A stretch of DNA of 64,000 nucleotides. Source: Candidatus Latescibacterota bacterium (GTDB taxonomy: Bacteria > Latescibacterota > UBA2968). A model generated the notes under the pieces. The model saw only the letters and a program-made list of their open reading frames with translations. It had not been told where the DNA came from and searched no databases. Made by a program: the position numbers and the translations under genes. Position 1 is the stretch's first letter; each line of letters opens with the position of its first letter. The stretch covers positions 5,152,001 to 5,216,000 of the forward strand of contig OZ242010.1 of assembly GCA_965204745.1 (NCBI GenBank), given 5' to 3'. Below, piece after piece: positions 34,719 through 50,129 of this stretch.

Positions 34719-36095
34719 CTAAAGTTTTGAGACCATGAACGCCAAGGTGCCCAGCGCGACCGTGGCGCCGTAGTCCAACTGCGCGGGGCGAAATGGCGAC
34801 AAGCGGCGAGCGTTCAAAAATGTGCCGTTGCTCGAGTTCAAATCCTCGACGTAAAACCGATCATCCCGAACCGAGATTCGCACATGCCGTCTGGATACAT
34901 TTTCATCTCGAACGACTTCATCCACCAAGTCGGGATGCCGCCCGAGCGAAAGCCCCAGGCGTTGCCCCGCGAATCTCTCGGGCGATAGTGCGATGCGAAC
35001 GCGATTGCCCCGGCTGTCAAAACCGGACAGCACCAGACCGCGGTTTGGCAGGGGGCTAGTGGCTGGTTTTTTTGCGACTGGCTGAGGTTGCCCGGCGGAT
35101 CGTTTTTGCACCATCTCACCGCCGCCTCGTCGGCTGATCCGCCGGCTCATGCCTTCTGCTATGCGGACGATCTGTTGCCTGGGTTTTCTGAGGGCGAGTG
35201 CCAAGGCGACCAATGTCAGGAGGCCCAAGAATATCCCCCATGTCAGAAATTGATCGCGTGCCTCTTCGGCTTGGATCCGCGCTCGTTCCGCTTGTTTCGC
35301 GGCGCGATCCGCCCCTCGCAGTGCCTTTTGCATCTCTTCGGTACTGCCCACGCCAGTTGCCGGCAAGCACGCATGGGTCTCTGATCGAAAGGCGATATTG
35401 TGCGTTTGCAAGAGCCTTGCGAGTTCCTCGATGTGCGAGGACCAGTAAATCCCCATGGCATGGGGCACGCGCTCGGTCCCACCGGAAGGACTACGAATGA
35501 CGATGAGAGACGCTTGTGTGTTCACGCCGATCACCCTGCCGCAATCATCCACCAAGGGGCCGCCGCTGTTGCCCGGATTGGTCGGCGCGTTGTGTTGAAT
35601 AATCCCGAGGTTTTGGCTGTGCCACGCGCCCGTAAAAACGCGCCCAATGACGCCGTCCTGCACGGTTGGATCGTGCGCGGGCCTTTCCCTGTCCGCGCCG
35701 CCGGGATAGCCGATGGCCCAGACTTTCTGCCCTTTTTTGGGTTGTGCGAGCGAAAATGTGATGGGCGGGAGGGTTATCCCCAAAACGCGGACAATAGCCA
35801 AGTCGAGTTGCCGGGAGGTGGCGATCACTTCGGCGTCATACATCCTGCTCGAATTTGTCGGTATGGCTTTGACCTGCCGCCCGCCCGCAATGACGTGGGC
35901 GTTTGTGGCGATATAACCGCGATTGTCGATCACGAATCCCGTGCCCGCCCCAACGCCCCGATGCGTCCGCGTGACGATCCGCACGACACTCTTTTCAAGC
36001 GCGGCAAAATCCGGCTCGGCCATCGCATCGCGCCCGCAACAGAGAACGGATAGGACCAGAACGGCAAAACGCCAATAGTTGAATTGGCACGGCAT
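34719..36095 (-). CDS. Trypsin-like (S1) serine protease + TM + cytoplasmic FHA domain
   Basis: Signal peptide; triad 'TNAHV', 'DLAIV', 'GNSGGP'; TM 'WGIFLGLLTLVALALAL'; FHA 'LGR...VSRRH...DLNSSNGT'. Confidence 0.9.
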   Translation of the reverse strand: MPCQFNYWRFAVLVLSVLCCGRDAMAEPDFAALEKSVVRIVTRTHRGVGAGTGFVIDNRGYIATNAHVIAGGRQVKAIPTNSSRMYDAEVIATSRQLDLAIVRVLGITLPPITFSLAQPKKGQKVWAIGYPGGADRERPAHDPTVQDGVIGRVFTGAWHSQNLGIIQHNAPTNPGNSGGPLVDDCGRVIGVNTQASLIVIRSPSGGTERVPHAMGIYWSSHIEELARLLQTHNIAFRSETHACLPATGVGSTEEMQKALRGADRAAKQAERARIQAEEARDQFLTWGIFLGLLTLVALALALRKPRQQIVRIAEGMSRRISRRGGGEMVQKRSAGQPQPVAKKPATSPLPNRGLVLSGFDSRGNRVRIALSPERFAGQRLGLSLGRHPDLVDEVVRDENVSRRHVRISVRDDRFYVEDLNSSNGTFLNARRLSPFRPAQLDYGATVALGTLAFMVSKL

Positions 36096-36096
36096 G

Positions 36097-37629
36097 TCAC
36101 GCCTCCACCAAACGCACCTGAAAAACGACCGGTCCCAGTTCGAGTTGATCATTGCTTTGCAACACCATCGGTTCACCCGGATCGAGCGCATGCCCATTGA
36201 TCCGCGTGCCATTTAGGGTATTCAAGTCCTCGGCATAGAGATCGCCGCCGGAAACGGTCAGCCTGACGTGGGCGCGGGAAATGGATTCGTGGTCGATCAC
36301 AAAATCGGCTTTGTCCGGGCTCCGCCCGAGGATCGCGCCGGATTGATCGCCCAATGCAAGCGCCGATAGACGCAACGCGAATGGCCTATCAGCGTGGTCT
36401 CGACCTTCCAACACGCAGCCAAAAGGCGCGGGTTGCGCTGCGGCTCTTCGCGCTGCTACGGCCTCTTGTTCTGCCTCGCTCAAGCGGGACTCGGCGCTTT
36501 GCAACCGCGCTTTCTTGCGGCGGGAAGAAATCAGCCAGCCGAGCAATGCGATCAGCAGCAAGGCCGCGCTGATGGCGATAACCCATTGCGACCGCTGCGC
36601 GGTCCTCTCCTCGACGACTGCGAGGCTATCGGCTTTTGCTTTGGCCTGCTCTCGCGCTGTTTTGACGCTGTTAGCTGCCGCGGCTTTGATGCTGTCCGCC
36701 CGTGCCCGATTGACCGAATCCGCCCGCGCTTGTTCTGCTTTGAGACTGTCTGCCACCGCTCGTTTGACCGAATCCGCCCGCGCCTTGGCGCGTTCTGCTT
36801 TTAGGCGTGCGGCGCGTTCTGCGCGTACTCGCTTCTCTGCGGCTTGGACGCTGTCCGCCATCGCTCGCTTCACGGAATCCGCCTGCGCCTGTGCTGCTTT
36901 GACGCTGTCCGTTGCGGCTTTGCGCGCTTGTTCGGCGCGTTCAATCGCGCTTGAGCACGCTTCTTCAACGACGGTGTAGGCAATGCCCCGGCCCATCAGC
37001 GCGGCGATGATGTCGTTGCTGCGTAGGGCAAAGACCGTCCCGCGCGGCTCTGCGTTTTTGCGAAACGGCCAGCGTCCGCGTTCCAAGTCCGGCGTGTTGA
37101 TGCCGACCACGTCCCCGCATTCATTGAACACGGGCATCCCAAAGGCTTTGGACGTCACGACGGCATTGTGATGGAGCAGGTGGACCACGGGATCGCCCGC
37201 TTTCTCACCCGGCAAAGTGTGGTAAGTGCCGATGGTCCCCTGAGAAATCCGCACGCTGTCGCCCATGCCAAACCCCAAGGTCCTCACGGCGCGGCCCACA
37301 GCGGCCCCTTGTTCGGACAAGTTCAGCGCGGGCAAGCCCAACCCCTGCACGCGCAACAGCGCCAAGTTCATCTCCCGCTTGGCAAACACTTGCCGCGCCA
37401 CGATTTCAGCGCCCGTCTTCAGGGATACGACCGTGAATCGCTCTGCATCAGCCAAGAGATGGGCATTGGTCAGCACATACCCCGCTTCATCGACGACAAA
37501 GCCACTTCCTTCCGCCGCGAGTCGGCTACCATCATGAGCACGCACCCGCACAATGCTTTCTACCTGCGCCCAAGCAGAACTCGCGAACAGGAACACCACA
37601 AGATGCACCATCACAGCAACGACACGCAT
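36097..37629 (-). CDS. Inactive trypsin-like domain + Ala-rich coiled-coil stalk + TM + FHA domain
   Basis: 'TNAHL' kept, 'NLALL' (D to N), 'KAFGMP' instead of GNSGGP; (A)DSVK repeats; FHA 'LGR...ISRAH...DLNTLNGT'. Confidence 0.85.
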   Translation of the reverse strand: MRVVAVMVHLVVFLFASSAWAQVESIVRVRAHDGSRLAAEGSGFVVDEAGYVLTNAHLLADAERFTVVSLKTGAEIVARQVFAKREMNLALLRVQGLGLPALNLSEQGAAVGRAVRTLGFGMGDSVRISQGTIGTYHTLPGEKAGDPVVHLLHHNAVVTSKAFGMPVFNECGDVVGINTPDLERGRWPFRKNAEPRGTVFALRSNDIIAALMGRGIAYTVVEEACSSAIERAEQARKAATDSVKAAQAQADSVKRAMADSVQAAEKRVRAERAARLKAERAKARADSVKRAVADSLKAEQARADSVNRARADSIKAAAANSVKTAREQAKAKADSLAVVEERTAQRSQWVIAISAALLLIALLGWLISSRRKKARLQSAESRLSEAEQEAVAARRAAAQPAPFGCVLEGRDHADRPFALRLSALALGDQSGAILGRSPDKADFVIDHESISRAHVRLTVSGGDLYAEDLNTLNGTRINGHALDPGEPMVLQSNDQLELGPVVFQVRLVEA

Positions 37630-37754
37630 GGAGACCTCCTCTTGTATCGTAAGCAGTCAGCAAAACAATCGGTCAGCACATCCATTGCCTTGGGGTGGAA
37701 AGGGGGGACTGACAACTGACAACTGACAACTGACCACTGCATCTCCCCTCTTTG

Positions 37755-39293
37755 CTATTGCTCTTTTTTTAGAAGACGCATGCCAGCGTTCTTCATTTGC
37801 CACAGAGTAATCAACCAGACCACAACCATAATAATCGCTGTGATTACCCAAATGCCCGCTATCGTAATTATACGCTCATCATTGCTGTTTATCACCGCTA
37901 GTAGTATTGCCGATAGTAGTATTGCCAACCACGGCAAGCAACAGAATGACAAACTGAAAAATGTACTGATCTTTGGATCTGTGATCTCGGCATTGAGGGC
38001 TTTGGCGAGACCGTGAATTGCAACGAAGTACCAGTAGAAATTGAATAATGGAATAAAGAGAAAGCCAATGGCTTTGCCTGGGGTTGTCCTCGCTTTGTCG
38101 GCGGGGATGAGCGACCACAATTTGTGCAGAACGAGGCAACCGAACACGTCAGCAATGATCACGGCTATGGTGTCCAACGCCAACGACCCTGAGATAAGCG
38201 GCAGGGGTACCGTAGCAACAAGGAAAATCCAGTGGGTACTGAACCACGTTTGCAAACGCTTCGCGTCGTCGACTTTGGGGGCTGAAGGAGGGCGATTGGG
38301 CAATTCGTCAATGGTCCTTTCATTTTTGAAATGCCCTTGCGGCAGTGCCGAATCCACCGCCAACTCGGCGTGCCATTCGGACGCCGCCGAGGAGCCGCTT
38401 GGGGAGGAGATTGAAGCGGTGTCGGTCAACGCATCGCGCCATTCGGACACACTTTGCGGCCGGGCATCCTCATCTACTTGTAGCGCGTGATCGATAGCGG
38501 CGAGAAAATGTTGGCTCGCACGGCCCTTGCACCGATCCGAAACTGGAATCAGCGGATCGCGGCGCACCCTATCCGTTGCATCAGCGGGCACCTCATCCGT
38601 CAACGCGCGATAGCACACCCCGGCCAATGCGTAAATATCCGTCCAAGGCCCTTGATTCCCGCGGGTCGAATACTGCTCTATCGGCGCGTATCCCGGCGTC
38701 ACAATGGAGGTCACAGAACGGCTCTTCGCACCCACCGCTTGACGCGCCGCGCCAAAGTCGATCAACACGGGCGAGCGATCCTCGGCGCGAATGACGATGT
38801 TGCCAGGTTTGATGTCCCGATGCAAAAAATCCGCACGATGCACCGCCGCCAAGCCGTCGAGAATCGGATGCAGAATCGCCTTGAGCTCCGACTCGGTCAA
38901 GATGCCCTTGCGGTTGAGATACGCGGACAGGGTCTCGCCCTCGGCGTATTCCATCACGATATACGCCGTGTTGTGCGCTTGAAAAAAATGATGCACGCGC
39001 ACGATATTTGGATGCTGAAACCGCGCCAAAATTCGGGCTTCATCTACAAATCGATCCAGCCCCCACTGAAAGTCCGCTACAACTTGAGACGACTGCGGCA
39101 CCACGGACAGATCGCTTTCGCGGATCGCGAGATCAGCGGGCAGATACTCCTTGATCGCCACGGGAATATCCAGCGCGTGATTCCAGCCGAGGTAGGTAAT
39201 GCCAAACCCGCCGTGCCCGAGGACGCGGTGAAACTCAAAATCCCCAATGCGCGTGCCCTGCGGCAAGGCCAATCTGTGTTGTGCTTCGTCCAT
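37755..39293 (-). CDS. Hanks-type Ser/Thr kinase with multi-TM C-terminal module
   Basis: 'LGHGGFG', 'HRDIKPGN', 'DFG', 'GYAPIEQ'; C-terminal hydrophobic helices with 'TPGKAIGFLFIPLFNFYW'. Confidence 0.92.
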   Translation of the reverse strand: MDEAQHRLALPQGTRIGDFEFHRVLGHGGFGITYLGWNHALDIPVAIKEYLPADLAIRESDLSVVPQSSQVVADFQWGLDRFVDEARILARFQHPNIVRVHHFFQAHNTAYIVMEYAEGETLSAYLNRKGILTESELKAILHPILDGLAAVHRADFLHRDIKPGNIVIRAEDRSPVLIDFGAARQAVGAKSRSVTSIVTPGYAPIEQYSTRGNQGPWTDIYALAGVCYRALTDEVPADATDRVRRDPLIPVSDRCKGRASQHFLAAIDHALQVDEDARPQSVSEWRDALTDTASISSPSGSSAASEWHAELAVDSALPQGHFKNERTIDELPNRPPSAPKVDDAKRLQTWFSTHWIFLVATVPLPLISGSLALDTIAVIIADVFGCLVLHKLWSLIPADKARTTPGKAIGFLFIPLFNFYWYFVAIHGLAKALNAEITDPKISTFFSLSFCCLPWLAILLSAILLAVINSNDERIITIAGIWVITAIIMVVVWLITLWQMKNAGMRLLKKEQ

Positions 39294-39331
39294 GGCGTCC
39301 CTCCGATATTATGGTACCTATCCCCTTGTTC

Positions 39332-39387
39332 AGTGATCCGCAACCACCGGCCCACTCGTATCAAAAAAGCGCGTAGCGATATTCCTT
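39332..39387 (-). pseudogene. Degenerate stub of the 5' end of the AAA gene at 27956
   Basis: Matches 27911-27970 with ATG to ACG, a 3-nt deletion and an immediate TGA. Confidence 0.75.
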
Positions 39388-39471
39388 GTCCGAGCGCGGA
39401 AAATAAAAGAAAGAGACAAGGGGAGCAGGGCTTGCTTGAAGGATGGCCGCAAGGGCTGTTTTAATGGGTTG

Positions 39472-39691
39472 GGGACCTATCCCCCCGGCCCCCTTTCCTA
39501 CAAGGAAAGGGGGAGCATAGCTTGCTTGAGTGATGGATCAAGGGCTGTTTTAATGGCTTTGAGCGAGGGCGTTATGCGATTAAAACCCGTCACATTCCCT
39601 CTCGCAAAACCCATCTGCGTTCTCCCTTCCTCGCAGGCACAGGCGTAGCCTACAACGAGTGAAACGAGTAACGGGGGTAGGGGGTAGGTCC
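39472..39691. mobile_element. MITE-like repeat, copy D
   Basis: gggacctatccccccggcccc...gggggtagggggtaggtcc; core as in copies A-C. Confidence 0.75.
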
Positions 39692-39795
39692 TGATAATGT
39701 TAAAAAGGAACGGGGAGCAGGGGTTTCTTAAAGGGTGATCGCATTGGCTATTTTGATGGCTTTGGATGAGTGCTCGACAGCCGCATGGGTATATA

Positions 39796-41124
39796 TCATT
39801 GGGGGCGACGCGCGGCATCCTCGGCGATGTTGTATCCGCCTTCTCCTGTGCGGCGGTAACGCTCGATCATTCGTTCGCGCTCTTCCGTCGGCTGTGCATC
39901 GTAAACGCGCCAGACGTGATCTATCTCTTCAAAAGGGATTTCAAAATCGAGTTCCGCCGCGTAGCGGTGCATCCGTTCCAAGGTGGTCAGCGCGTATTTC
40001 CAGTTGACAAGAGGCTTTAAGAGAAGCACTGCCCGCCGTTGCAACGATAGCTGGGCAAGGGGATGAATGCGAGCAGTCCACTGTTCGTTGGGGCGATGCT
40101 CAACGCCGATGGCCGAAATCGCGATATCGGATAGCCCAAGTCGAGCGTCGAGGGTCGGCGGTCCAATTTCGTGTGGGACTTCTACAACGCGATCTCGGAT
40201 CTGGAACGCATCGGCGAAGGGAGGTGCCGGAAGATGGCGGGATCCCTTGAGGTCCAGCGTCTCGATTAGGGCTTTGCGGTCTTGGTCTGAGGGCGCCCAG
40301 AGATCTAGATCCTTCGGAGGCTGTCCCGTTAGCAAAGTCTTGAATGCACCGCCGGCGAGAAAAAACCTGGCACCAGTGTCAAAACCGATAGTCGCGGCAA
40401 CTTCACGGCGTGCGAACTCAATCACGTCGGACTCTTCAAGTGGGCAAAGAGGATCCAAATCATGGCGAACCGCCTCAAAGTCACGGTAGGCTGTATTCAA
40501 TCCGTCTTCTTCGCGCCAGAAAAACGCGCCCTCAAGGTACCAGGGCCAGTCATTCTTCCCAAGAGGTTGCTTCAACAGCCGCGCTGCCGTTACAGTCACC
40601 AACGAGTCGTGCGTGACAAACACATGAATCCCGGGAATATCGTTCGCTACGGCGAACATGTGTTGTACGAGAAACCGCGCCGCTTCGTCGGGCCGCGACA
40701 ACCCTGGCAACGGGTCAGCCCCCGACACCAGACGCGCCATGACATCTTCATGGTCGCGTTCGGTCCAGATGCATTCGGCACGCTTACTATCGAGGACATA
40801 AATGCCCGGATCGCCGAGTAATTGGTCGGGCACTATGCGGCAGTTGCCCCCAGAACCATCCCGCAGAACTTCGGCGGTCTGAACACACCTAATGAGGGGA
40901 CTCGCGTGAAGCGTACGCAATCTGTCGCCGATCAGGGTGCCGAACTTGCGTCCAAGCCTTCGTCCAATATTGTTAATCGGAAGAGTATAACCCACCATAT
41001 CCCCGGGCGGAAGAGGGTCGCGGACCGAGTGGCGGAGCAAAAAGACCACCGGGCGATTGCGAGGCACCCGTTTGAGAATCGGAGGTATCCAAGACGGGAT
41101 TTGATAACAGATGGTATCGTTCAT
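39796..41124 (-). CDS. Histidine phosphatase family domain fused to a nucleotidyltransferase-like domain
   Basis: 'LLRHS', 'SPLIRCVQTA', 'VTHDS'; C-terminal 'LAGGAFKTLL...KDLDLW'. Confidence 0.8.
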   Translation of the reverse strand: MNDTICYQIPSWIPPILKRVPRNRPVVFLLRHSVRDPLPPGDMVGYTLPINNIGRRLGRKFGTLIGDRLRTLHASPLIRCVQTAEVLRDGSGGNCRIVPDQLLGDPGIYVLDSKRAECIWTERDHEDVMARLVSGADPLPGLSRPDEAARFLVQHMFAVANDIPGIHVFVTHDSLVTVTAARLLKQPLGKNDWPWYLEGAFFWREEDGLNTAYRDFEAVRHDLDPLCPLEESDVIEFARREVAATIGFDTGARFFLAGGAFKTLLTGQPPKDLDLWAPSDQDRKALIETLDLKGSRHLPAPPFADAFQIRDRVVEVPHEIGPPTLDARLGLSDIAISAIGVEHRPNEQWTARIHPLAQLSLQRRAVLLLKPLVNWKYALTTLERMHRYAAELDFEIPFEEIDHVWRVYDAQPTEERERMIERYRRTGEGGYNIAEDAARRPQ

Positions 41125-42785
41125 TGCGCCACCCCCACCAACACCGAGACGAGCGATTCCAGAGTTTGAACCTCTTTTATTTTGAAATCCGCGTTATTGA
41201 GCAAGTGCCCGTATTCTGCGGTCGTGCGTTCCTTCCCCCCGCTTGTCATGAGCAGATGCAGGCTACACAACGCGCCCGCGATGCCAGTCTTGGGAATCAA
41301 CATCTCGACGATGTAGATGTGCCCCCCGCGGGGCAGGGCTGCCCGGGCGTTTTGCAGTATCCGGATCGCCTTTGCATCTGCCCAATCGTGAAGGACGCGG
41401 GCGAGTACAACCGCATCGGCCTCAATGCCCCACGGCTCAAATAGATCGCCCGCATACCATGCGAGCCGTTCGCGTTTTCCTTGCTCCTGAATTGCCCGAG
41501 CGATCACCTCGGGGCGGTCGAGGACGGTCACCTGGAGATGGGGATGTGCGTCGAGCATGAGATTTGCCAACACACCCAACCCACCGCCGGCATCAATAAC
41601 GCGCTCGCGCCCCTGAAGACCCAATGCGCTCGTCACACTTGAATAGTCGTGCCGAGCGTAACTTTGCAACATTCGATGATGCCCTTCGCAACGCTGTTCA
41701 TCGCGGGCGACTTCGGCGAAAACATCGGGTGCGTTCTCGTTGCCGTGCAGGGCTTGCGGAAGCGAAGCCCACATTTCCGAAAACGGCCCTGCGTATTCAA
41801 GGGCTGCATCTGCCAATGTGAGCGGATGCTCCATACAGAGAAATTCTCCGCGGGCGGTCAGGTGCCAAATGCCTTCCCGCATCGAGACGAGGGATAACTC
41901 TCCCAGTGCCCGCAGAAGTCGTTGGACAGCACCGATCCGCAATTTGCACTTGTGCGCGACCTCGACAGTGCTCGCGGGGAGTAACTCAATGACGCCGAGT
42001 TTGACTGCGGCGGCGATGGTTTGCGTTCGCCAAAAGCCGACCATGTCCCCAGAGAGTACTGCGAACTCGGAGCGACGGGGTGAACGGAGCGCGACCATGG
42101 ACTCGCCCATCTCGTCGATGACCTCGAATGCCCCGTCGAATCGCTCCACGCGGGCTTGACCGTTGTAGAAGGGTTCCACCGTTGCGAAACGGCGCGAATA
42201 GATGGGGGTGCCGGTGCGATTGACATGTGCCCAACCTGCTTCATCCCGGGCGCGTGCAAAACCTTTGTGGAATACATCGAGATCTGAGAACCATTGACCG
42301 TGTATTTGTCGACCATCCGCGTCGATATGCGTAGATCGGCCATCTTTGGCCTGAATAACGGCGATGCCGTCGCGGTAATCGCCAGCATAACGCCACCGCG
42401 CCTGATAAACCGGAATGCCGTCGTATGCGATGTGAAAGTACGAATTGTCGTTATCGCGTACCGCACATCGTCCTTCTTGAAAGTTGCCGCACCAAGCGTA
42501 TCGCTGTGGGTACGCATCTTTGCCGGATGGCTGAATATGGTGCCAGCCATCTTTGCCAATAACAGCAGCACGGTTTTCGTAGAAGCCAAACGTTCGCCGA
42601 AAATGCCGTTTATAGGCCGGTCTGCCATCCGGCCCGATGTGCCATGCCTTTGATCCTCGGAGGACTGGTGCCAACCCCGGTGCGCGAAACTTCAGGACTT
42701 CGTCAAATCGTTCTTCATAAGCGGGAATGCCGTTAATGACGTGATGGGAGCCTTCCGGTGCGATGTCCAAAAATTCAGGATTCAT
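41121..42785 (-). CDS. WG-repeat-like domain + SAM-dependent O-methyltransferase (Methyltransf_2-like)
   Basis: Repeats 'FYENRAAV...GWHHI', 'FQEGRCAV', 'FHKGFARA...GWAHV'; 'IDAGGGLG', 'GDLF', 'RVLHDW', 'GGKERT'. Confidence 0.85.
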   Translation of the reverse strand: MNPEFLDIAPEGSHHVINGIPAYEERFDEVLKFRAPGLAPVLRGSKAWHIGPDGRPAYKRHFRRTFGFYENRAAVIGKDGWHHIQPSGKDAYPQRYAWCGNFQEGRCAVRDNDNSYFHIAYDGIPVYQARWRYAGDYRDGIAVIQAKDGRSTHIDADGRQIHGQWFSDLDVFHKGFARARDEAGWAHVNRTGTPIYSRRFATVEPFYNGQARVERFDGAFEVIDEMGESMVALRSPRRSEFAVLSGDMVGFWRTQTIAAAVKLGVIELLPASTVEVAHKCKLRIGAVQRLLRALGELSLVSMREGIWHLTARGEFLCMEHPLTLADAALEYAGPFSEMWASLPQALHGNENAPDVFAEVARDEQRCEGHHRMLQSYARHDYSSVTSALGLQGRERVIDAGGGLGVLANLMLDAHPHLQVTVLDRPEVIARAIQEQGKRERLAWYAGDLFEPWGIEADAVVLARVLHDWADAKAIRILQNARAALPRGGHIYIVEMLIPKTGIAGALCSLHLLMTSGGKERTTAEYGHLLNNADFKIKEVQTLESLVSVLVGVAQ

Positions 42786-45133
42786 GAGGTTCCTCCCACG
42801 GGTTTACGCATGTTGCAACCCAGGCAAAGGGAGCGGTTGCGGTATGTTGCCATGAGTTCTCGGTACGCGTCGCCGTTCCATATTTCCATCAATCCTCGCT
42901 CGTGCAGATTGCCAAATTCGCCCAGGGTGCGGCGTTGGGCATCCGGCGCGCAACACGGGTCAAAGCGGCCCATCGCACTCACCCATACCTCTTGACCCAA
43001 AAATGGACACTGCCCGCCGGGGGCGAGATCGTCAACCGCATCTTCATCGAGTGGGAAAATGTTCTCGAGCAAAATGTACTGTCCATTCGGAAGCGTCCGT
43101 TCCACGGCCGCCTCGCGCGCTTTGAAAACCGCCTCATTCCATCGGCGAATGGCTGAGGGGTCGCGGCGCATGGATTGCTTTTTGATTTCGTCGAAGTGGA
43201 CCCACAGGTGGTGCCCTTTCACGCGGTCCACGCCAAGGTCAATGGCGAGTCTCACCGTGTCGGCGAGTTCCCCTACATTGGCTTCGAGAAAAGTTAGTTG
43301 AAAGGTGACGCGACAGCGATTGCCACCGTGGGCCGCGTGTGCGTCTCTCACTGCGATGAATGTCCGTGCGTTTTCCAGCACCTTTTCCCAGTTGGCACCG
43401 ATCATGATGGTCTCCTGCGTCTCTTTCGTCGATCCATTCCAAGAGATTTTGACATCTGACGTCACGGGTACAATTTGCTCTGCCCATTTGCGTGCGCCAA
43501 GGCGCGGGAAGGTGCCGTTGGTCGTGAGGTTGAGCCTAACACCGTAGCGTTTACAAAGATCGAGAATGTCCTCGAATTGATCGTAGAGCAACGGTTCGCC
43601 CATCGTTGACGGAATGATCTCCTCAAGCCCGTGCGGTGCCGCATCTGCGACAACCCGCTCGATCATCTCGAAGGACATCAGCCGCCTAGGCCGGCCTTCG
43701 GTTCTTCTCAAGTCTTGAAGTGGGCTGTGCGGCGAGTGCTCCTCGCACATGATACAGCGCAGATTGCAAGTGTCCGGGTTTGTGTCGAAAGTGATCCGCC
43801 ACGGCCCTTTTCGTCGCTGAAGGCGTGCGGTATCTCGCCGTTTCATCACTTGGTCGTAAAGTGCCTCAATCCGACGAACGTGTGTCTCTATCGCCGGTAC
43901 ATCTCCGGTTGCGCTGGACAGATAGCCCCTCGCGCCGAGTTTGGCGGCGAGTTCGGGCGCATCGACGAATCGTTGCATTTGTTCGGCGAGTGAAGCGGAT
44001 GAGCGATGTTCAAACAGGAGGCCGTTGATCTCGTGATGGACATACTCGCCCATGCCGCCTGCATTGGCGGTGATAACCGGCACGCGGGCCTGTTGCGCCT
44101 CGTGGATGACCAGCGGTGAATTTTCCACCCAAACCGAAGGCACGACGATGGCGTCGCAACGATCAAAAACATCGCGCACAATATTCCAATTTTTGTACTC
44201 GGGCATCCATTCAATGCGCCTGGTCGCGTGTTCTGGCAACGAATTTGCCATCTCTTTTAGCGCGACGGTGTCCTGCCCGCTCGGCCGTCCCCAAATACGC
44301 AAACGCGCATCTCCGCCAATGGTGCTGAACGCCCGAATGAGATCGTGAATACCTTTGGCCGGAATGTGCGTCCCAATGTAGCCAAAGGTAAACGGTTCGC
44401 ACGGAGCTCGGTTGCGGCCCATCATTCGTTTTTGATCGAAACCGTAGTCGAGATAAACGAGTTTGCGTTCGGGCAAACCGAAAGCGTCTCGGTAACGGTC
44501 GTGGAGATAGCGGGCCGGCGCGATAAAAAGATCGATCAACTCGGCCATTTCACGCACATGTTGCATGCGCCGCCCGACCCAGTCGGTCCAGTAGGTGACA
44601 TCGGCCTCGTATTCGTCGGGGGCACCGCTGAAGTAACGGGCATAGCAACGCTCGGCGCACTTGCGATCATCTTGTCCGTCGCAAGCGGCCCAGAGATTGT
44701 TTGGATCTTCGGGAAACATCTGCATAAACTGACCGCGGGGGCACATCAGCCAGTAGTCGTGCAGGGTATAGATGATCGGCACTTCCCGGCGTGCCACTTC
44801 TCGCACCAGCGAGGTCGAGAGGTGGTTGAGATGACCGATATGCACCAGATGCGGTTGCAACCGATCCAGCACTTCGGCAAAGCATTGGTCAACCCCAACG
44901 GCTCGATATCGATCCTTGAAACGGGGATTGTTGACAACATGGAGCGCGACCCGCGGATCTTCGGTATCTCGTTCCACGCGCAAGCGAAAATCCGGCGCAA
45001 AGGGATCTTCTTCACGGGTGAAGACATGCACCTCGTGGCGATTGGCGAGCCCTTGGCACAACATCTGGCTGTACACCTCTGACCCGGCGTTGTAGCGCAT
45101 GGGGTAACCATGAATGACTTTCAGAATTTTCAC
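42782..45133 (-). CDS. GT4 glycosyltransferase fused to a radical SAM domain with SPASM/twitch-like C-terminus
   Basis: GTG after AGGAGG; 'TLHDYWLMCPR', 'PSVWVENSPLVIHEA'; 'CNLRCIMC' CxxxCxxC, 'GEPLL', 'TTNG', C-terminal 'CPF...PCC...CLGC'. Confidence 0.9.
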   Translation of the reverse strand: MKILKVIHGYPMRYNAGSEVYSQMLCQGLANRHEVHVFTREEDPFAPDFRLRVERDTEDPRVALHVVNNPRFKDRYRAVGVDQCFAEVLDRLQPHLVHIGHLNHLSTSLVREVARREVPIIYTLHDYWLMCPRGQFMQMFPEDPNNLWAACDGQDDRKCAERCYARYFSGAPDEYEADVTYWTDWVGRRMQHVREMAELIDLFIAPARYLHDRYRDAFGLPERKLVYLDYGFDQKRMMGRNRAPCEPFTFGYIGTHIPAKGIHDLIRAFSTIGGDARLRIWGRPSGQDTVALKEMANSLPEHATRRIEWMPEYKNWNIVRDVFDRCDAIVVPSVWVENSPLVIHEAQQARVPVITANAGGMGEYVHHEINGLLFEHRSSASLAEQMQRFVDAPELAAKLGARGYLSSATGDVPAIETHVRRIEALYDQVMKRRDTARLQRRKGPWRITFDTNPDTCNLRCIMCEEHSPHSPLQDLRRTEGRPRRLMSFEMIERVVADAAPHGLEEIIPSTMGEPLLYDQFEDILDLCKRYGVRLNLTTNGTFPRLGARKWAEQIVPVTSDVKISWNGSTKETQETIMIGANWEKVLENARTFIAVRDAHAAHGGNRCRVTFQLTFLEANVGELADTVRLAIDLGVDRVKGHHLWVHFDEIKKQSMRRDPSAIRRWNEAVFKAREAAVERTLPNGQYILLENIFPLDEDAVDDLAPGGQCPFLGQEVWVSAMGRFDPCCAPDAQRRTLGEFGNLHERGLMEIWNGDAYRELMATYRNRSLCLGCNMRKPVGGTS

Positions 45134-45161
45134 AGCGATCTCCTCCTTTGTATTTCGCGCA

Positions 45162-46154
45162 TCATATCGCCACATCCACGCTTTTGCCGGACGCGCCTGA
45201 GATGCGGGCCGCGTGCAAGACCTGCATCACGCGCAAGCCGTGTTCCGCGGTGATGATCAAGTCTTCGCCCTCGCGCAGGTGCCGGGCGATGTTCACGTGC
45301 AGATTTTCCCGCGGCACGGCCTCCGTGCGAACATCCCGTCCGTTTTCACTGTAGATGGTGACTTCGCCCGCGCCGCCACGTCCGCACACGAGCGTGGCTT
45401 CTGTGCCGAGAACGATCCACTTGTACGGCAGTGCGTAATGGGAAATATCGGCCTTGGCCGCGCGGGCGCGCACCCCATTGTCAAAGACCATGACGATATC
45501 GAACAAATCGTCGGCATCCCCCCATTTGGTATGCCGCACATCGGCAAAGACCGAGACGATGCGATGCCCCGCCATCAAGTCGATCACCTGCTCGACCCAG
45601 TGCGGCCCAAAATCCAGCAAAGTGCCTCCGCCCGCGGCCGCGGTCACGCGCCATTGTCGGTCGTAGTCCGCGATGCCGAACCCCACGGCCGGGCGCGCGC
45701 CCAGCGTGCGATTTTCAATGGCGACGACCTCGCCAACGGCCCCGTCCAAAACCGCGCGCTTCACCAGACAATAATCCCGGTCAAAGTGCCGGTTGTGGTG
45801 CAGCGTCAGCATCACGCCATTGTCCTTTGCCGCCTGCACCATCTCCTCGGCCTGGGGCCCGGTCAGTGCCATGGGCTTTTCGATCAGCATGTGCTTTTTC
45901 GCCGCGGCCACCTTGAGCGCGTCTGCATAGTGCGCTGCCGAATGCGTGGCGATCAACACCAATTCGATGTCCCAAGTCAAAAACGCGTCGAGGTCATCGG
46001 TCGCGCGCAGGCCCTCGCCCATCGCCGCGTCTCGTCTGGACGCCGTAATATCGCACACCCCCACCACCTCGTACACCCCGGTCTCGCGCATGATTCGCAG
46101 ATGGTTGCCGGCCACGCGCCCAAATCCAATTATGCCCGCTTTGATTTTTTTCAT
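45162..46154 (-). CDS. Gfo/Idh/MocA family oxidoreductase
   Basis: 'GIIGFGRV', 'HMLIEKP', 'DFGPH'. Confidence 0.9.
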   Translation of the reverse strand: MKKIKAGIIGFGRVAGNHLRIMRETGVYEVVGVCDITASRRDAAMGEGLRATDDLDAFLTWDIELVLIATHSAAHYADALKVAAAKKHMLIEKPMALTGPQAEEMVQAAKDNGVMLTLHHNRHFDRDYCLVKRAVLDGAVGEVVAIENRTLGARPAVGFGIADYDRQWRVTAAAGGGTLLDFGPHWVEQVIDLMAGHRIVSVFADVRHTKWGDADDLFDIVMVFDNGVRARAAKADISHYALPYKWIVLGTEATLVCGRGGAGEVTIYSENGRDVRTEAVPRENLHVNIARHLREGEDLIITAEHGLRVMQVLHAARISGASGKSVDVAI

Positions 46155-46880
46155 TTATTTTTCCTCGTCGTCTCCGTATTCCTCGCCGCGATAGGCCGCC
46201 CGCACTTGGGCTATCGTGGTCGCCTTTTTCACCCGCGCTTGCAGGGCCTCTTCCGTTGCGATCAACAGGTTGACATTCGCCAGCACCTCGGCCATTCGAT
46301 TCGCCGGAAACTTGACCGCGCCATTTTCATCCATGTGGATGATCTCCCCGGGCGCGACATCCATGCCGCAAATCGACACCGGCACGTTCACCGCTTGCAC
46401 GGCCTGATCCCCGTGCCCGGGGGAGATGCCGGTCAACAAATACTGAAATCCCATCGGCCGGATTTCGTCAATGTCCCGCGATGGCCCGTTCGACACGCAA
46501 CCTATGCAGCCCAACGCCTGCATCGTGGTCGTCATATTGCCGCCCGCAAGCCCGACCTTGCCCGCAATCTCGGCCGGGAACTTCTGCTCCAGCGCGAGGA
46601 TAGTAGGCTTTGGCGACGCGTCCAATGCCTCGGCCACGTCCATGAACGACAACCGCTTAAACCCCGCGTCTGGCAAGCCAAACGCACACGTCACCGCGTA
46701 CCCGCACCGCGCGCCGAGTTCCGGATACATGCACTTGATCGTCTGATCCGTGTACCAATTCTCGGTCCAGGGATTGTAAAGCCCCAAACACAGCGGATTA
46801 TTCGGATACGTCGCCACCACATTGGTGATGGATGGCGTATCGAATTTCTCCAACGCCTTCAAAATTTCCCGATCCGTCAT
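46155..46880 (-). CDS. RraA-like / HMG aldolase family protein
   Basis: 'DTPSITN', 'GGNMT', 'GPSRDIDEI', 'PGEIIHMDENG'. Confidence 0.85.
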   Translation of the reverse strand: MTDREILKALEKFDTPSITNVVATYPNNPLCLGLYNPWTENWYTDQTIKCMYPELGARCGYAVTCAFGLPDAGFKRLSFMDVAEALDASPKPTILALEQKFPAEIAGKVGLAGGNMTTTMQALGCIGCVSNGPSRDIDEIRPMGFQYLLTGISPGHGDQAVQAVNVPVSICGMDVAPGEIIHMDENGAVKFPANRMAEVLANVNLLIATEEALQARVKKATTIAQVRAAYRGEEYGDDEEK

Positions 46881-46966
46881 GACTTCCTCCTTTGAAAATC
46901 AGTGGTGCTCTGCCCGGCCCAAAGGCAAGAGGCAAGAGGTAAGAGGCAAGATACTCTCTTAAAAGG

Positions 46967-47974
46967 TCAAGGGGTTTTCGGGGTGATTCGATAGAATTTT
47001 TCGCCCTCAAAATCTTGGTCATGGCGCAACATGCCCCAGATCGAATGGAGCAACTTTCGCATCACCGCAACGATAGCCTGCAAAGGTTTCTTGCCGCGGG
47101 CGATGAGTTGGTCATAGAAGGCTTTGACATGGCCTTCGTGTCTGATGGCCACCCAGGCAGGCATATAGAGGGCATGGCGGAGGTACTTATTCCCGGTTTT
47201 CGAGATGCGTCTTTGTGGATTGGCGGTTCCGGATTGTTTGGGTTTGGGATCCAGGCCTGCATGTGCGACCCACTGGGGCGGTTGCATCTCCTCTGGCAAA
47301 AGGGTCAACTCGGCCAAGAGCCGCAAGGCACTCGTTTGCGCGATGCCAGGCGTCGAGCAGAGGCGTTGGTAGGCACGCTTGAGGGGCTCATCGTGCAAAA
47401 CGAGATCGAGGGCTTGGCTTTCCAAGTATGCAATCCGGCGTTTGAAGTGTCGAATATTCACCTGAATATCGCGTGCGATGAGACGTGTGCTGCGGATGTG
47501 GTAGCTCTGCGCGTGGTTGCGGCTCTGTTCGCGGATGATCTCCTGCTTGAGTTGGTCAATGCGTCTGGTGAGGGCTTGCAGTTGAAGCCGTTGCTCGCTC
47601 GGCGCTTGCCAAGGCACAAAAGGCATGCGCTCGGCATAGTCGAGGATCAACAACGCATCCTTCGCATCCGTCTTCGCCCGTTGCATGCAGGCTTGGGCGT
47701 ACTTGCTCATCGCTTTGGGATTGACGACCATGACCTTTGTGTGGCGATGCCGATGCAAGGCCAAGGCCACCCCCAAACTGTAAAGCCCGGTCGCTTCGAG
47801 GCACACAGAGACCATGTGCCCGCCCTTCGTGAGCCACTTCAGCAACCGCTTATGCGCTTGGGGATCATTGGCAAAGGTCGCTTGCATGACAGCTTGTCCG
47901 GGTCTGGACAGGGCAACGGACAACGTGCGGGCACTGACATCAATGCCGGCAAAAGCGGGGTGAGATTTCGACAT
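46967..47974 (-). CDS. IS110 family DEDD recombinase/transposase
   Basis: 'GIDVS', 'CLEATG', 'KTDAKDA', 'AGLDP...QSG', 'SKTGNKYLRHALY', 'AVMRKL'. Confidence 0.95.
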   Translation of the reverse strand: MSKSHPAFAGIDVSARTLSVALSRPGQAVMQATFANDPQAHKRLLKWLTKGGHMVSVCLEATGLYSLGVALALHRHRHTKVMVVNPKAMSKYAQACMQRAKTDAKDALLILDYAERMPFVPWQAPSEQRLQLQALTRRIDQLKQEIIREQSRNHAQSYHIRSTRLIARDIQVNIRHFKRRIAYLESQALDLVLHDEPLKRAYQRLCSTPGIAQTSALRLLAELTLLPEEMQPPQWVAHAGLDPKPKQSGTANPQRRISKTGNKYLRHALYMPAWVAIRHEGHVKAFYDQLIARGKKPLQAIVAVMRKLLHSIWGMLRHDQDFEGEKFYRITPKTP

Positions 47975-47999
47975 GGGGGCCTCCTGTGATGAGGGGGTT

Positions 48000-48225
48000 G
48001 TAAGGGATCTGGTGCGCGCTCGGGGTCGCGTCCCGACCATTGACGCCAAGTCTACCGGTCTTGTATATGCAGCCTCAAGGGGCTTAGATACTCTTCGGCA
48101 TAGACCCGGCGGTCGGGGGGCCTATCTTACCTACAAGGTCATCGCCTTCAAGAGGGGCCGGCCTTCCCCGAGCCGGGCATCAAGATGGCTTATCTCGATA
48201 CGAGGGCGCAACTCCTAATTAACCC
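48000..48225 (-). ncRNA. Putative IS110 bridge RNA (ends approximate)
   Basis: Ordered guide-like segments on the minus strand: GGCCCCTCT (48159-48151), AGGTAAG (48132-48126), AGAGTATCT (48094-48086), ATACAAG (48066-48060), matching target and donor junctions. Confidence 0.7.
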
Positions 48226-48318
48226 TTACTTCCAAGATAGCAAGAGGGGAGAGGGCCACCCACAGCACGCTCCCCTAGCTCTTAGGGGTCAGTAGAGCGA
48301 AGGACGCAGTAGGTGTGG

Positions 48319-48900
48319 TCATGGCATCCTCGCCATCTGGGTTTCGAGTCGCTGGGCAAGGGCGTCGAAATCCTCGGGGCACTTCTGTCGGATCGCGCTT
48401 ATTCGGCGTGCGGCTTCGCGTCCGAAGGTATCGCGGCCGCCGCCAAGGCGATTGGCGATGCCGCGTTGTTGTGCCAGAACCTCAAAGTAATTTTCCTTGA
48501 CATGAATCTCTGCGCGAACGTCCGCCCAACGCCAATTATGAGACAAGTTCAAGCCCGCGAGAACCCAAGTCTCGATCTCTTCCCAAGCGTTCTCAGCCAA
48601 GAAAACCCGTTGACCTCCGAACCGCGCCTCGAGCTGGTTGAGCCTTTGTCGTCTCTGTGTGTTGCCATCGCGGTCGACGCATAAGATGAAAATGTCTATC
48701 ATGCCTCGATATTGTTCTACGATTTCTGCCATGCGTCTCGATTTTAGGGCTTCCCCAATGCCGCCGAGCAATGGGTCCTGACAAATTCGAATATGTGCGG
48801 AAGGTCTCGGTCTCTTGAAGGTTCTCATAAGCCGAGAGAAAAGCGGCTTGAGAATGTACTGGTCTTTGCGAAAGTCTTCCGGGATGATGAGGATGTTCAT
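48319..48900 (-). CDS. Hypothetical TOPRIM-like (DUF4276/RloB-like) partner of the ATPase
   Basis: 'ILIIPED', 'ILCVDRDG' DxD, 'EEIETW'; ATGA overlap with the ATPase. Confidence 0.65.
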   Translation of the reverse strand: MNILIIPEDFRKDQYILKPLFSRLMRTFKRPRPSAHIRICQDPLLGGIGEALKSRRMAEIVEQYRGMIDIFILCVDRDGNTQRRQRLNQLEARFGGQRVFLAENAWEEIETWVLAGLNLSHNWRWADVRAEIHVKENYFEVLAQQRGIANRLGGGRDTFGREAARRISAIRQKCPEDFDALAQRLETQMARMP

Positions 48901-50129
48901 TCTCTGATCCTCTCATCTTGAGCACGCGCCAAGTTGAGCATATCTTCCAGCCACCCACTCGTGTGGAGTCGTCCCAAGCCTTGAGATCGCCGCAACTTCT
49001 GTGCGTTGGGCAGACTAGCTACAGATCGGATGACAGCGTCGTCAGTGTCCTCAAGTCGGCAGATGACGGAGGTGTTTTCGAATGTCCTATCATCGATAAG
49101 GGCCAGCATGTCGGGCGAGTGGGTGGTGGTAATCACTTGGATGCCGTTCTGCGCGGTCTGTTTTTCGATCAGTTCGAGGAGTAGCCACAGGCGGTTGGGA
49201 TGAATGCCATTGTCGAGTTCCTCAAAAAAATAAATGCCCGATGGGTTCGTGCCGAGCAACGCGGTCAGCATAGCCAGAAAGCGCAGCGTGCCATCCGACG
49301 CGCTGTAAGCCGATACTTTTCTGCCATTCGCTTCGCAAATCATGAGATGGACCCGTCCACTGGGATCGCGCAAAAACTCAAAACCCGCCACATCCATCTG
49401 CGTGAGTTCCGCCAGCCACTCAGCGAGAATCTCCTGCTGCCGCGGATCAATACAGATTTCCGCCAGTACTGTAGGCAAGTTCTCGCCGCCGTCGCCCAAG
49501 ACAGTCGCATCGGGGAAAGCAGGCACCCGCATCTGTTCCGGCGACAATTCCAGAAAGCGGATGTTGGCGAGAACGCCAATTACTTGCGCGGCGAGATTCC
49601 CATAGTCTTGGTCGTGCCAAACCCCGAGGGGGTAACTTTGAATCTGTGTCAGTGCCGGTTGGTCTGGGCGCACCGCGATTATCTGATTAGTCTCTCCGAG
49701 GCGAAGGCATATAGCTTTTCTATGAGCAAGGCTATCTGGCTGGGTCGTGTAGATCGGCCTCCCATCGGCGTTTAGTTCTTCTCGCGCAACCCTGAATGTA
49801 CCCAGCCTGGTTTTATCGCGTCTGACTTTGATGGCGTAATTAAAGCGGTGATTCTCGACCCGAAATTTGACGCAAAGGGAGAGTGACGGTTGCCCAAAGC
49901 GGATGACTTCATCGGTAGCACCGCGGATCGGTTTCCAACCAGCCTCGTGCTTCCCGCCAAAAATCTCGGCTAAAGTGTAGCCACGACCAATGCCCTGTAA
50001 GAAGCGGAACGCGTCGCGGATGTTGCTCTTGCCGCTGGCGTTCTCTCCCACGAGTACGGTGAACGGACCTACGCGAAGCGTTTCGTCTGCGAAGTTCTTG
50101 AAATTGACGAGTCGGAGCGAAGTGATCAT
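48897..50129 (-). CDS. ABC-type (AAA_21/AAA_15-like) ATPase
   Basis: 'NFKNF', 'GENASGKSN', signature 'SDGT', 'FFEELDNGIHP', 'ITTTHSP'. Confidence 0.9.
   Translation of the reverse strand: MITSLRLVNFKNFADETLRVGPFTVLVGENASGKSNIRDAFRFLQGIGRGYTLAEIFGGKHEAGWKPIRGATDEVIRFGQPSLSLCVKFRVENHRFNYAIKVRRDKTRLGTFRVAREELNADGRPIYTTQPDSLAHRKAICLRLGETNQIIAVRPDQPALTQIQSYPLGVWHDQDYGNLAAQVIGVLANIRFLELSPEQMRVPAFPDATVLGDGGENLPTVLAEICIDPRQQEILAEWLAELTQMDVAGFEFLRDPSGRVHLMICEANGRKVSAYSASDGTLRFLAMLTALLGTNPSGIYFFEELDNGIHPNRLWLLLELIEKQTAQNGIQVITTTHSPDMLALIDDRTFENTSVICRLEDTDDAVIRSVASLPNAQKLRRSQGLGRLHTSGWLEDMLNLARAQDERIRE

Follow-up and report, generated by a model that had tools for sequence, protein, structure and literature searches.

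The Undecim Cluster of phage WO is the closest described relative of a gene cassette carried by a 64,000-nucleotide (nt) stretch of Candidatus Latescibacterota bacterium DNA (GCA_965204745.1, OZ242010.1: 5,152,001–5,216,000, forward strand), called the window below. The cluster comprises UC1–UC11 (WD0611–WD0621). UC3 is a fusion of a glycosyltransferase (GT) and a radical S-adenosylmethionine (radical SAM, rSAM) enzyme, and the functions offered are annotation-based predictions in the passages of the source drawn on here (PMC9203015). The same passages propose, from annotation, exopolysaccharide or lipopolysaccharide (LPS) roles for WD0611–WD0613, and suspect the cluster of shaping the interaction between host and symbiont (PMC9203015). 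According to parts of a second account, Undecim proteins are detected by mass spectrometry and are abundant in the symbiont proteome; a fusion of KWG repeats to an O-methyltransferase (OMT) and syntenic homologues in free-living bacteria are noted there, as are copies of WD0612–WD0618 on Rickettsia plasmids (PMC4701759).

The cassette in the window consists of three genes.

42782..45133, minus strand: gene 1, 783 amino acids (aa), GT family 4 (GT4) plus radical SAM/SPASM; homologue of UC3/WD0613
41121..42785, minus strand: gene 2, 554 aa, WG-repeat plus O-methyltransferase; homologue of UC4/WD0614
39796..41124, minus strand: gene 3, 442 aa, histidine phosphatase (HP) plus class-II-like nucleotidyltransferase (NT)

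It is a free-living variant of the Undecim core, with an HP-NT gene added and with a MocA-family oxidoreductase and an RraA-like protein in the place of a short-chain dehydrogenase/reductase (SDR). A first-pass annotation of this DNA did not recognise the genes as a described cluster. For the core that view fails, as genes 1 and 2 are homologues of UC3 and UC4. In tblastn searches gene 1 matches phage WO (51.7% identity, 98% of the query aligned), Rickettsia plasmids (51%) and Arsenophonus plasmids (55%). Taken by domain, identity to WO is 49% for GT4, 56% for rSAM, 45% for WG and 20% for OMT; gene 2 and UC4 are 30% identical over 540 residues. HP and NT have no match in the WO or pRA1 loci, whose annotated products are an SDR, the GT/rSAM fusion, a WG-repeat protein, PhyH, an ABC transporter and two threonine aldolases.

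The likeness extends to layout. UC3 has the same GT4 and radical SAM/SPASM fusion and the same set of Pfam families as gene 1, and UC4, a fusion of WG and OMT, lies directly 3' of UC3, adjacent and in the same order as gene 2. Both systems are mobile: one is found in phage WO and on Rickettsia and Arsenophonus plasmids, while the block in the window is flanked by an insertion sequence (IS) and a repeat resembling a miniature inverted-repeat transposable element (MITE). The differences lie around the core. The window lacks the GlmU-like UC1 and the SDR UC2, whose position upstream of gene 1 is held by the MocA oxidoreductase; it also lacks PhyH (UC5), the ABC exporter (UC6) and the threonine aldolases (UC7 and UC8), none of which gave a tblastn match. 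It has instead the HP-NT gene, followed by a repeat-filled spacer, and the upstream pair of MocA and RraA-like genes, and it resides in a Latescibacterota chromosome rather than in a eukaryotic association module or a WO-like island. Neither the HP-NT partner nor the substitution of MocA and RraA for the SDR was found in print in the literature searched.

The cassette as a conserved unit

The three genes form a conserved unit. A locus scan with gene 1, taking one genome per species, yielded 130 confirmed places, and 79 distinct loci were kept. Gene 1 is 63–93% identical at these loci, which span more than 10 phyla. Carriers include Latescibacterota (the closest, represented by metagenome-assembled genomes, MAGs), Myxococcota, Alpha-, Beta- and Gammaproteobacteria, Desulfobacterota, Verrucomicrobiota, Planctomycetota, Gemmatimonadota (Longimicrobium), Nitrospinae and others. 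The six domains recur as follows.

GT4: 79/79 loci, median identity 72%
rSAM: 77/79 loci, median identity 75%
WG: 76/79 loci, median identity 64%
OMT: 56/79 loci, median identity 55%
HP: 50/79 loci, median identity 52%
NT: 34/79 loci, median identity 56%

Identity falls from GT4 and rSAM to WG and on to the tailoring parts, a gradient in keeping with a fixed core that makes the scaffold and tailoring parts that vary. The WG gene adjoins GT4-rSAM at every locus where the contig continues (76/76); the other three contigs stop no more than 9 bases past the last match. The full set of six domains occurs in 27/79 loci, and the exact three-gene architecture of the window in 20/79. The first-pass annotation would have given up its proposal had the genes failed to co-occur elsewhere; the constant WG neighbour and the recurring architecture are the opposite outcome. 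Parts are nevertheless shuffled among loci. WG is a stand-alone gene in about 20, sometimes coding for a protein of ~235 aa; HP and NT are split, or one of them is missing; and 8 loci carry GT4-rSAM and WG only.

Additional genes accompany the unit in its relatives. An extended-SDR sugar epimerase/dehydratase, which resembles GalE, RmlB and UXS about equally, lies directly upstream in 46/79 loci. It is absent from the window, where tblastn with UC2 and with the SDR of locus L057 gave no match. A PhyH dioxygenase, likewise not in the window, stands beside the cassette in 4–5 loci, and a class II aldolase and UDP-glucose dehydrogenase also occur in relatives. All-against-all clustering of flanking open reading frames (ORFs) revealed no conserved neighbour beyond the SDR and one unannotated family of ~230 aa; this clustering chose ORFs greedily, and in GC-rich loci long antisense ORFs can displace real genes. 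The ~230-aa family lies 3' of the cassette in 12/79 loci, often overlapping the end of the last gene (L043:15338–16030, L010, L016, L022, L045, L055, L059, L070, L074 and L083; partial in L030 and L048). It is not in the window, has no Pfam, NCBIfam or PADLOC match, and may be a seventh, unnamed tailoring part.

Gene boundaries in the window are well defined. The ORF list gives minus-strand frames at 42782..45175, 41121..42785 and 39796..41124. Gene 1 starts at the GTG at 45133, with a strong Shine–Dalgarno sequence (AAGGAGGAG) 7 nt before it, and its product begins MKILKVIHGYP. Full-length homologues (66 proteins) measure 775–789 aa, compared with the 783 aa predicted from this start. A 797-aa product from the ATG at 45175 was dismissed on the homologue lengths and the ribosome-binding site. 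ATGA stop/start overlaps are read at 42785–42782 between genes 1 and 2 and at 41124–41121 between genes 2 and 3. The first-pass annotation had given coordinates that imply the correct start of gene 1 at 45133, described three fusion genes coupled by ATGA overlaps, and counted six domains, all of which are real by Pfam, by catalytic motifs and, for the nucleotidyltransferase half, by a confident fold. Its three-gene frame was too narrow upstream, where two further genes are closely packed. The surrounding features are listed below.

45162..46154, minus strand: GFO/IDH/MocA-family NAD oxidoreductase, 330 aa
46155..46880, minus strand: RraA-like aldolase/decarboxylase-family protein, 241 aa
46967..48049, minus strand: IS110-family transposase gene (Pfam), the upstream bound of the packed five-gene block
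39471..39697, no strand: dispersed MITE-like repeat of ~225 nt, in the 500-nt spacer 3' of gene 3
39410–39473, 39500–39563 and 39702–39765: three 64-nt direct repeats in the same 500-nt spacer

The MocA gene stops 28 nt ahead of the start of gene 1, and the stop codon of the RraA-like gene directly abuts the MocA start, all on one strand. Because of this tight packing the transcription unit in the window may comprise five genes. The MocA gene is possibly co-transcribed with the cassette, and its functional link is a candidate one. MocA and RraA-like genes count as candidate members only, since they stand beside the cassette in just two of the 79 loci (L007 and L008, the two closest relatives), and a MazF-type gene separates MocA from the cassette in L008. 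Rfam gave zero matches at E ≤ 0.1 over 38500–49000, and promoter-like and terminator-like sites are no more frequent than in shuffles. No NCBIfam model attains its cut-off for the three cassette proteins or their single domains. PADLOC returns only weak pVip and mad2 matches for them.

Proposed pathway and enzymes

The cassette is best read as making or tailoring a small metabolite from a nucleotide-sugar or nucleoside, with no defence role implied; the probability of this is put at roughly 0.55. A compact small-molecule pathway was among the original suggestions, and it remains the best account, with the genes co-occurring and polysaccharide-type neighbours being rare. The SDR and MocA proteins are sugar oxidoreductases and the methyltransferase is of the COMT type, both of which support it. 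The extras found in relatives (PhyH, aldolases, the WO exporter) have tailoring and export functions, and the drop in conservation from core to tailoring is what a decorated scaffold would show. Among the ties of the rSAM fold are the sugar- or nucleoside-acting enzymes BlsE, DesII, MoaA and viperin. We infer the chemistry of each step, the order of steps and the nature of the product from the enzyme families present. (i) An NAD-dependent sugar oxidoreductase, the SDR epimerase/dehydratase in most relatives and maybe MocA here, would ready an activated sugar. (ii) The GT4 half of gene 1 would move the sugar from its nucleotide-sugar donor onto a small, possibly phosphorylated, acceptor. (iii) The fused twitch/SPASM rSAM half would perform one radical step on that sugar or nucleoside. 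(iv) The COMT-type methyltransferase would O-methylate the product. (v) The optional histidine phosphatase–nucleotidyltransferase would take off a phosphate and add or handle a nucleotidyl group. The WG-repeat domain, which accompanies gene 1 more constantly than any other part, probably serves to bind substrate or to keep the enzymes in one assembly.

Several points weigh against this proposal. The rSAM fold matches peptide-modifying SPASM enzymes equally well, and the NT half resembles an RNA 3'-end enzyme. The window is without a transporter, a regulator or the SDR gene carried by 46/79 relatives. The link to MocA and RraA is one of spacing alone, at the two loci described above and with the MazF-type gene intervening in L008. 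Finally, the literature found names no substrate, product or phenotype for any member and contains annotation-level statements only.

Described nucleoside pathways offer parallels in logic. The tunicamycin (tunicaminyluracil) cluster, tunA–N, encodes an SDR epimerase (TunA), an rSAM enzyme of ~337 aa (TunB), a GT of ~450 aa (TunD) and a histidine phosphatase (TunG), together with a methyltransferase in Streptomyces (TunM) and ABC transporters (TunI/J), as set out in the sections of the source used here (PMC6965331). The same enzyme classes are thus gathered in one compact cluster, a likeness of logic only, and the tunicamycin cluster demonstrates that such an enzyme set can build a glycosylated nucleoside from nucleotide-sugars. 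Unlike the cassette genes, the tun genes are unfused and include no WG or NT part. NCBIfam and PDB searches gave no link of homology to tun proteins for the rSAM, GT or phosphatase parts. For the L057 SDR, PDB 3vps, which we take to be TunA, comes no higher than rank 11, with 75.7 bits where the best match has 89.8. In the polyoxin and nikkomycin pathways the rSAM enzyme PolH acts on a phosphorylated nucleoside and the phosphatase PolJ then removes the phosphate, according to the portion of the source consulted (PMC5365060). The pairing of rSAM enzyme with phosphatase is the shared trait, likened here by description only. PolJ belongs to a different phosphatase family.

Gene 1 divides into two parts.

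43814–45133: GT4 part, ~aa 1–440
42782–43813: radical SAM plus SPASM/twitch-type part, ~aa 441–783

In the numbering of the 797-aa ORF, Pfam assigns Glyco_transf_4 to aa 31–247 (62.2 bits) and Glycos_transf_1 to aa 251–418 (85.6 bits); in the C-terminal half it detects Radical_SAM (55.7 bits) and SPASM (39.9 bits, cut-off 21.5). Both Rossmann-like halves of the retaining, GT-B-fold GT4 part match the family models, which makes it a member of the family. The solved structures nearest by sequence profile are the cyanobacterial Tll1590 (6kih), which is presumably sucrose-phosphate synthase; two 'predicted glycosyltransferases', 3c4q and 3c48, which we take to be MshA; BshA; and PimB-type enzymes. 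The acceptors of sucrose-phosphate synthase, MshA, BshA and PimB-type enzymes are small and in many cases phosphorylated, and the following step in their pathways is catalysed by a phosphatase. Acceptors of this kind would give the cassette phosphatase a job. The GT4 part's N-terminal half holds an insertion with four invariant cysteines (C131, C151, C159 and C163; aa 131–163). These could make up a zinc site or a further Fe–S site not present in ordinary GT4 enzymes.

The CxxxCxxC motif of the rSAM part (C456/C460/C463) is invariant in the alignment of gene 1 homologues, and C709, C727, C728, C770 and C773 near the C-terminus are conserved, in agreement with the motif and auxiliary cysteine cluster first reported. 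With this core motif and Cys-rich C-terminal extension the half qualifies, on sequence grounds, as a SPASM/twitch enzyme. The number of conserved cysteines is tied to the number of auxiliary clusters in these enzymes, BtrN being a twitch enzyme with one. The five cysteines after the core would fit one auxiliary Fe–S cluster, as in BtrN, although that number is not directly readable from the sequence. The predicted rSAM structure (predicted local distance difference test, pLDDT, 90) matches SuiB (Z 23.2), BlsE (Z 23.2, 295/327 residues aligned), SkfB (22.9), PqqE (21.4), CteB (21.2) and anSME (20.3); further matches are MoaA (Z 20–23), DesII and viperin (5vsl, Z 19.4, 246 residues aligned). The substrate class is left undecided by the fold because the peptide maturase SuiB and the small-molecule enzyme BlsE tie.

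Peptide maturases at the top of this list (SuiB, SkfB, PqqE, CteB, anSME) raise an alternative, in which the SPASM rSAM and GT4 act on protein, possibly with the WG domain itself as substrate. WG is indeed the one invariable partner (76/76) and is sometimes a stand-alone protein, at 8 loci the only companion of GT4-rSAM. Modification of a protein or peptide is nonetheless very improbable. No precursor-peptide gene and no RRE-type recognition domain was seen, the tie with BlsE gives small molecules an equal claim on the fold, the five cysteines after the core would suit the single auxiliary cluster of a twitch enzyme, and small-molecule pathways typically have tailoring enzymes such as the SDR, OMT, PhyH and aldolases found here and in relatives.

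The genome holds a single copy of gene 1. Fused relatives of this gene number at least 2,860 at E ≤ 0.001 among 8,000 candidates scored; the 120 matches listed are 772–803 aa long and 76–98% identical, and all have GT, rSAM and SPASM domains. Shorter, rSAM-only proteins (searched at 30–437 aa) number at least 2,984 at E ≤ 1e-5 among 8,000 candidates, with 65–87% identity. Many of these may be contig-end fragments: some are cut at contig ends, while others of 345–365 aa sit on megabase contigs. The two halves lie in separate frames or ORFs at four loci (L019, L030, L080 and L082); in L080 and L082, from large sulfur bacteria, the full-length gene 1 match ends at residue 431. Split genes, frameshifts or an inserted element could account for these. 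Database names for the family go no further than 'glycosyltransferase' or 'radical SAM protein'.

Gene 2 likewise has two parts.

42072–42785: WG-repeat domain, ~aa 1–238
41121–42071: plant-type O-methyltransferase with dimerisation domain, ~aa 239–554

Pfam reports WG_beta_rep (30.5 bits), an O-methyltransferase dimerisation domain and Methyltransf_2 (121.2 bits). D398, G400, G402, G404 and H466 are invariant in the alignment; H466 is presumably the catalytic base, going by what is known of the Methyltransf_2 family. Matches of the WG domain in the ESM Atlas are other WG-repeat clusters only. A complex prediction of WG (aa 8–229) with full-length GT4-rSAM (aa 1–778), both supplied as alignments, scored 0.00, which bears neither way on binding.

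The optional part of the pathway is encoded by gene 3.

40459–41124: branch-1 histidine phosphatase part, ~aa 1–222
39796–40458: pol-beta-type nucleotidyltransferase part, like class II CCA-adding head and neck, ~aa 223–442

His_Phos_1 is its sole Pfam match (20.3 bits, slightly below the 21.7 cut-off); the NT half matches no Pfam family, PolyA_pol included, and no NCBIfam family. From 20 homologues AlphaFold predicts the structure with good confidence (pLDDT 91.2; predicted template modelling score 0.90). Across the 20 sequences R31-H32-S33-V34-R35, R79, T171-H172-D173, G258-G259, K262, D272, D274 and D333 are invariant. The N-terminal half, with its catalytic histidine, second histidine and conserved arginines, is a branch-1 histidine phosphatase; its fold matches RosC, TIGAR, PhoE and Rv3214. 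The nucleotidyltransferase call made for the C-terminal half in the first-pass annotation is backed by the fold. Foldseek returns the A-adding enzyme 4wc2 (E 3e-08), CCA-adding enzymes and 3aql/3aqk, presumably a bacterial poly(A) polymerase (the database title reads only 'bacterial protein'), over a range of E 3e-08 to 1e-06. The head and neck fold, the invariant GG, the DxD and the third Asp are shared with class II tRNA nucleotidyltransferases. In contrast to these, the NT part of gene 3 is fused to a histidine phosphatase and has only ~220 aa, compared with 342–439 residues in the matched chains, so that about half of the enzyme is absent; alignments cover ~200–217 columns with template modelling scores of 0.30–0.39 normalised by target length. 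The portion lacking comprises the tRNA-holding body and tail. By sequence the likeness to CCA enzymes falls short of significance (E 0.3). The part is not a member of the class II family, lacking the full head–neck–body–tail, and may have a like function. A profile search with gene 3 found it in single copy, inside the cassette, in three of three searched genomes having HP-NT, and gave zero matches anywhere in seven of seven searched genomes whose cassette lacks it. HP-NT is thus an optional, cassette-specific part.

This fold would also suit a pathway of nucleic-acid modification or repair, in which the phosphatase would heal a 3'-phosphate, the NT would extend RNA, and OMT, GT4 and rSAM would decorate a nucleotide within RNA or DNA. 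The likeness to the head and neck of A- and CCA-adding enzymes and of poly(A) polymerase, with the invariant GG...DxD...D, speaks for it; the position of some cassettes inside BREX loci, beside DNA methylase and helicase genes, would fit DNA marking. We consider it unlikely all the same. The NT part is far shorter than the chains it matches. Being the least constant part (34/79), and found nowhere else in the seven NT-less genomes checked, it cannot be a core activity. The OMT belongs to the COMT type, which acts on small molecules, and Pfam and NCBIfam detect no nucleic-acid-binding domain in the three proteins.

Neighbouring genes and the question of defence

The genes around the cassette bear on two further explanations. 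The Wolbachia literature suggests for WD0611–WD0613 the modification of a cell-surface glycan, either exopolysaccharide or LPS. GT4 is the commonest family in polysaccharide synthesis, and the annotation-based proposal cited above (PMC9203015) is joined by weak NCBIfam matches to EpsE and PEP-CTERM-system glycosyltransferases (~49 bits) and by a UDP-glucose dehydrogenase or a family 2 glycosyltransferase (GT2) near the cassette in single loci. The neighbourhoods make such a role improbable. Flippase, polymerase, chain-length and export genes were all missing from scans of 61 and 27 neighbours, as were lipid-carrier enzymes. Polysaccharide-type genes among the 61 same-strand neighbours nearest the cassette came to one UDP-glucose dehydrogenase, one GT2 and two sulfatases, and none was of Wzx/Wzy type or for capsule export; the routine embedding in LPS or capsule loci that would have told against a small-molecule pathway is not seen. 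Polysaccharide equivalog models of NCBIfam all score far below cut-off. In none of the three proteins, for which no transmembrane or signal-peptide predictor was run, does Pfam find a family of transporters or other membrane proteins.

Chemical defence against phages is the second explanation. The cassette would block phage replication by making a modified nucleotide or nucleoside analogue, as prokaryotic viperins do, or would pass that molecule on to a defence system beside it. The most suggestive case is L057, where the gene order is BrxC, PglXI, AriA-like ATPase, BrxHII, SDR, GT4-rSAM, WG-OMT, HP-NT, PglZ and BrxA, with overlapping gene ends. This is a type 3 BREX locus, and L015 shows the same frame from BrxHII to PglZ and BrxA on its contig; PADLOC scores are very high. 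In L009 a candidate defence pair, PDC-M51A/B, lies between the SDR gene and GT4-rSAM. Other close neighbours include BrxE, BrxL or PglX/PglW (in three Sorangium loci), ZorA, SspB, AbiEii, WYL regulators, MazF and a NACHT-TPR protein, and 2 kb upstream of the cassette in the window there is a PDC-M07A-type ATPase. The rSAM fold comparison also brings up viperin (Z 19.4).

Prokaryotic viperins share a comparable rSAM core fold with gene 1, and a nucleotide-modifying rSAM enzyme among defence genes would be their candidate logic. They differ in that the rSAM part of gene 1 is fused to GT4 and that its C-terminal cysteine cluster matches Pfam SPASM. Gene 1 falls outside the pVip family: NCBIfam viperin_w_prok scores 27.5 bits, far below its cut-off of 180, and PADLOC pVip 32.5 bits. 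The BREX cases may represent about two independent events, with L015 and L057 sharing one arrangement and L033, L037 and L039 all from Sorangium. The WO and Rickettsia versions occur in obligate intracellular bacteria and come with an exporter, which also argues against defence. PglZ, BrxC/PglY and PglX are absent from the window ORFs scanned; around the cassette these BREX genes are found in L057/L015 only. At E ≤ 1e-15 PADLOC matched 16/112 nearest-neighbour ORFs (9/43 loci), against 15/101 ORFs (6/8 regions) in the control, an outcome without excess from which no enrichment is claimed. The 112 ORFs tested are from 188 neighbours, and the small control consists of eight 20-kb regions set at even intervals along the window's own genome. 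The test is weak either way, because that genome is rich in defence genes and 10 of the 15 control hits come from one island. The possible defence role raised in the first-pass annotation thus gains suggestive nested cases, type 3 BREX and PDC-M51, and fares less well in the neighbour comparison; anti-phage chemistry is regarded as a tentative and rather doubtful explanation.

An equally tentative extension is a portable 'chemical immunity' module. Here a core of sugar oxidoreductase, GT4-rSAM and WG protein would make a glycosylated nucleotide or nucleoside analogue, swappable tailoring parts (OMT, histidine phosphatase, NT, PhyH, aldolases) would diversify it, and the product would hit phages or competitors. 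Such a module would explain the nesting between brxHII and pglZ in type 3 BREX, the PDC-M51 pair in one locus, and the exporter-bearing versions of WO and the plasmids.

These loci have further features of their own. The BREX frames of L057:5–21107 (Pseudodesulfovibrio pelocollis) and L015:24–10671 enclose two cargos, one an AriA/OLD-like ATPase that comes after PglXI and the other the four-gene cassette between BrxHII and PglZ; in L057 the type 3 BREX locus is followed by ZacA and ZacB. In L009:3128–10436, from a Bradymonadia MAG, PDC-M51A (a B12-type rSAM protein of 479 aa) and PDC-M51B (dTMP-kinase-like, VakA-like) have overlapping gene ends, and a PhyH gene lies between GT4-rSAM and WG-OMT. 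A viperin identity for the 479-aa rSAM protein is rejected, as PDC-M51A has B12-type, rSAM methyltransferase-like matches. One control region (L093, C1:3400001–3420000) is a dense defence island with DarT-DarG, a type I restriction system that has two specificity genes, a type II restriction enzyme and its cognate methylase, and PDC-S35.

Mobility of the cassette and its significance

Production or tailoring of a small metabolite, the favoured account, would be the work of a genetic element that moves. Gene 1 occurs in 2/40 related genomes (2/20 within the genus and 0/20 outside it, both carriers belonging to the same genus); these genomes are mostly 91–100% complete, with two family members at 82% and 89%. 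The patchy distribution in the genus, the high identity across phyla and the flanking IS and MITE-like elements indicate an accessory, laterally moving cassette. An IS110 copy of 76% identity also lies upstream of the cassette in L007. The ~225-nt element has 58 matches, itself included, in the 5.48-Mb genome, mostly at 76–90% identity, so that the MITE copy noted beside the genes in the first-pass annotation is real. It looks like a MITE or repetitive extragenic palindromic (REP)-type element of this Latescibacterota genus. Two more copies lie ~9 kb away in the window at ~29908–30404 (C1:5181908–5182404). A 106-aa ORF over the repeats (39498–39818) has no Pfam or NCBIfam family and a marginal PADLOC match (E 0.007). 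No phage genes were found among 12 window ORFs scanned. A scan of viral contigs gave five loci, three of the WO type and two other cassette copies, and shows no broad phage carriage of the cassette.

The wider flanks hold further genes. Upstream of the IS110 gene, at 48319–50129, are an AAA_21 ATPase matching the PADLOC candidate PDC-M07A (217 bits) and a familyless partner of 193 aa. At 34719–39293, 3' of the cassette and on the same strand, are a Ser/Thr kinase (512 aa) and two paralogous trypsin-like protease–FHA proteins (510 and 497 aa).

GT4-rSAM is among the most conserved accessory proteins we have met, given its 63–93% identity across more than 10 phyla. The core has been described as part of the Undecim Cluster and is functionally uncharacterised in print, whereas the variant with HP-NT and MocA/RraA is new. 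The Undecim Cluster cannot be studied genetically in Wolbachia. Free-living, culturable carriers, among them Halomonas sp. 25-S5, Ramlibacter alkalitolerans, Ectothiorhodospira shaposhnikovii, Nannocystis, Sorangium and Myxococcus vastator, make its chemistry directly testable. In Halomonas sp. 25-S5, R. alkalitolerans KACC 19305 and E. shaposhnikovii DSM 243 the cassette comprises SDR, GT4-rSAM, WG-OMT and HP-NT. If the product proved to be an antiviral or antibiotic nucleoside, the cassette would represent a new and very widespread class of chemical defence.

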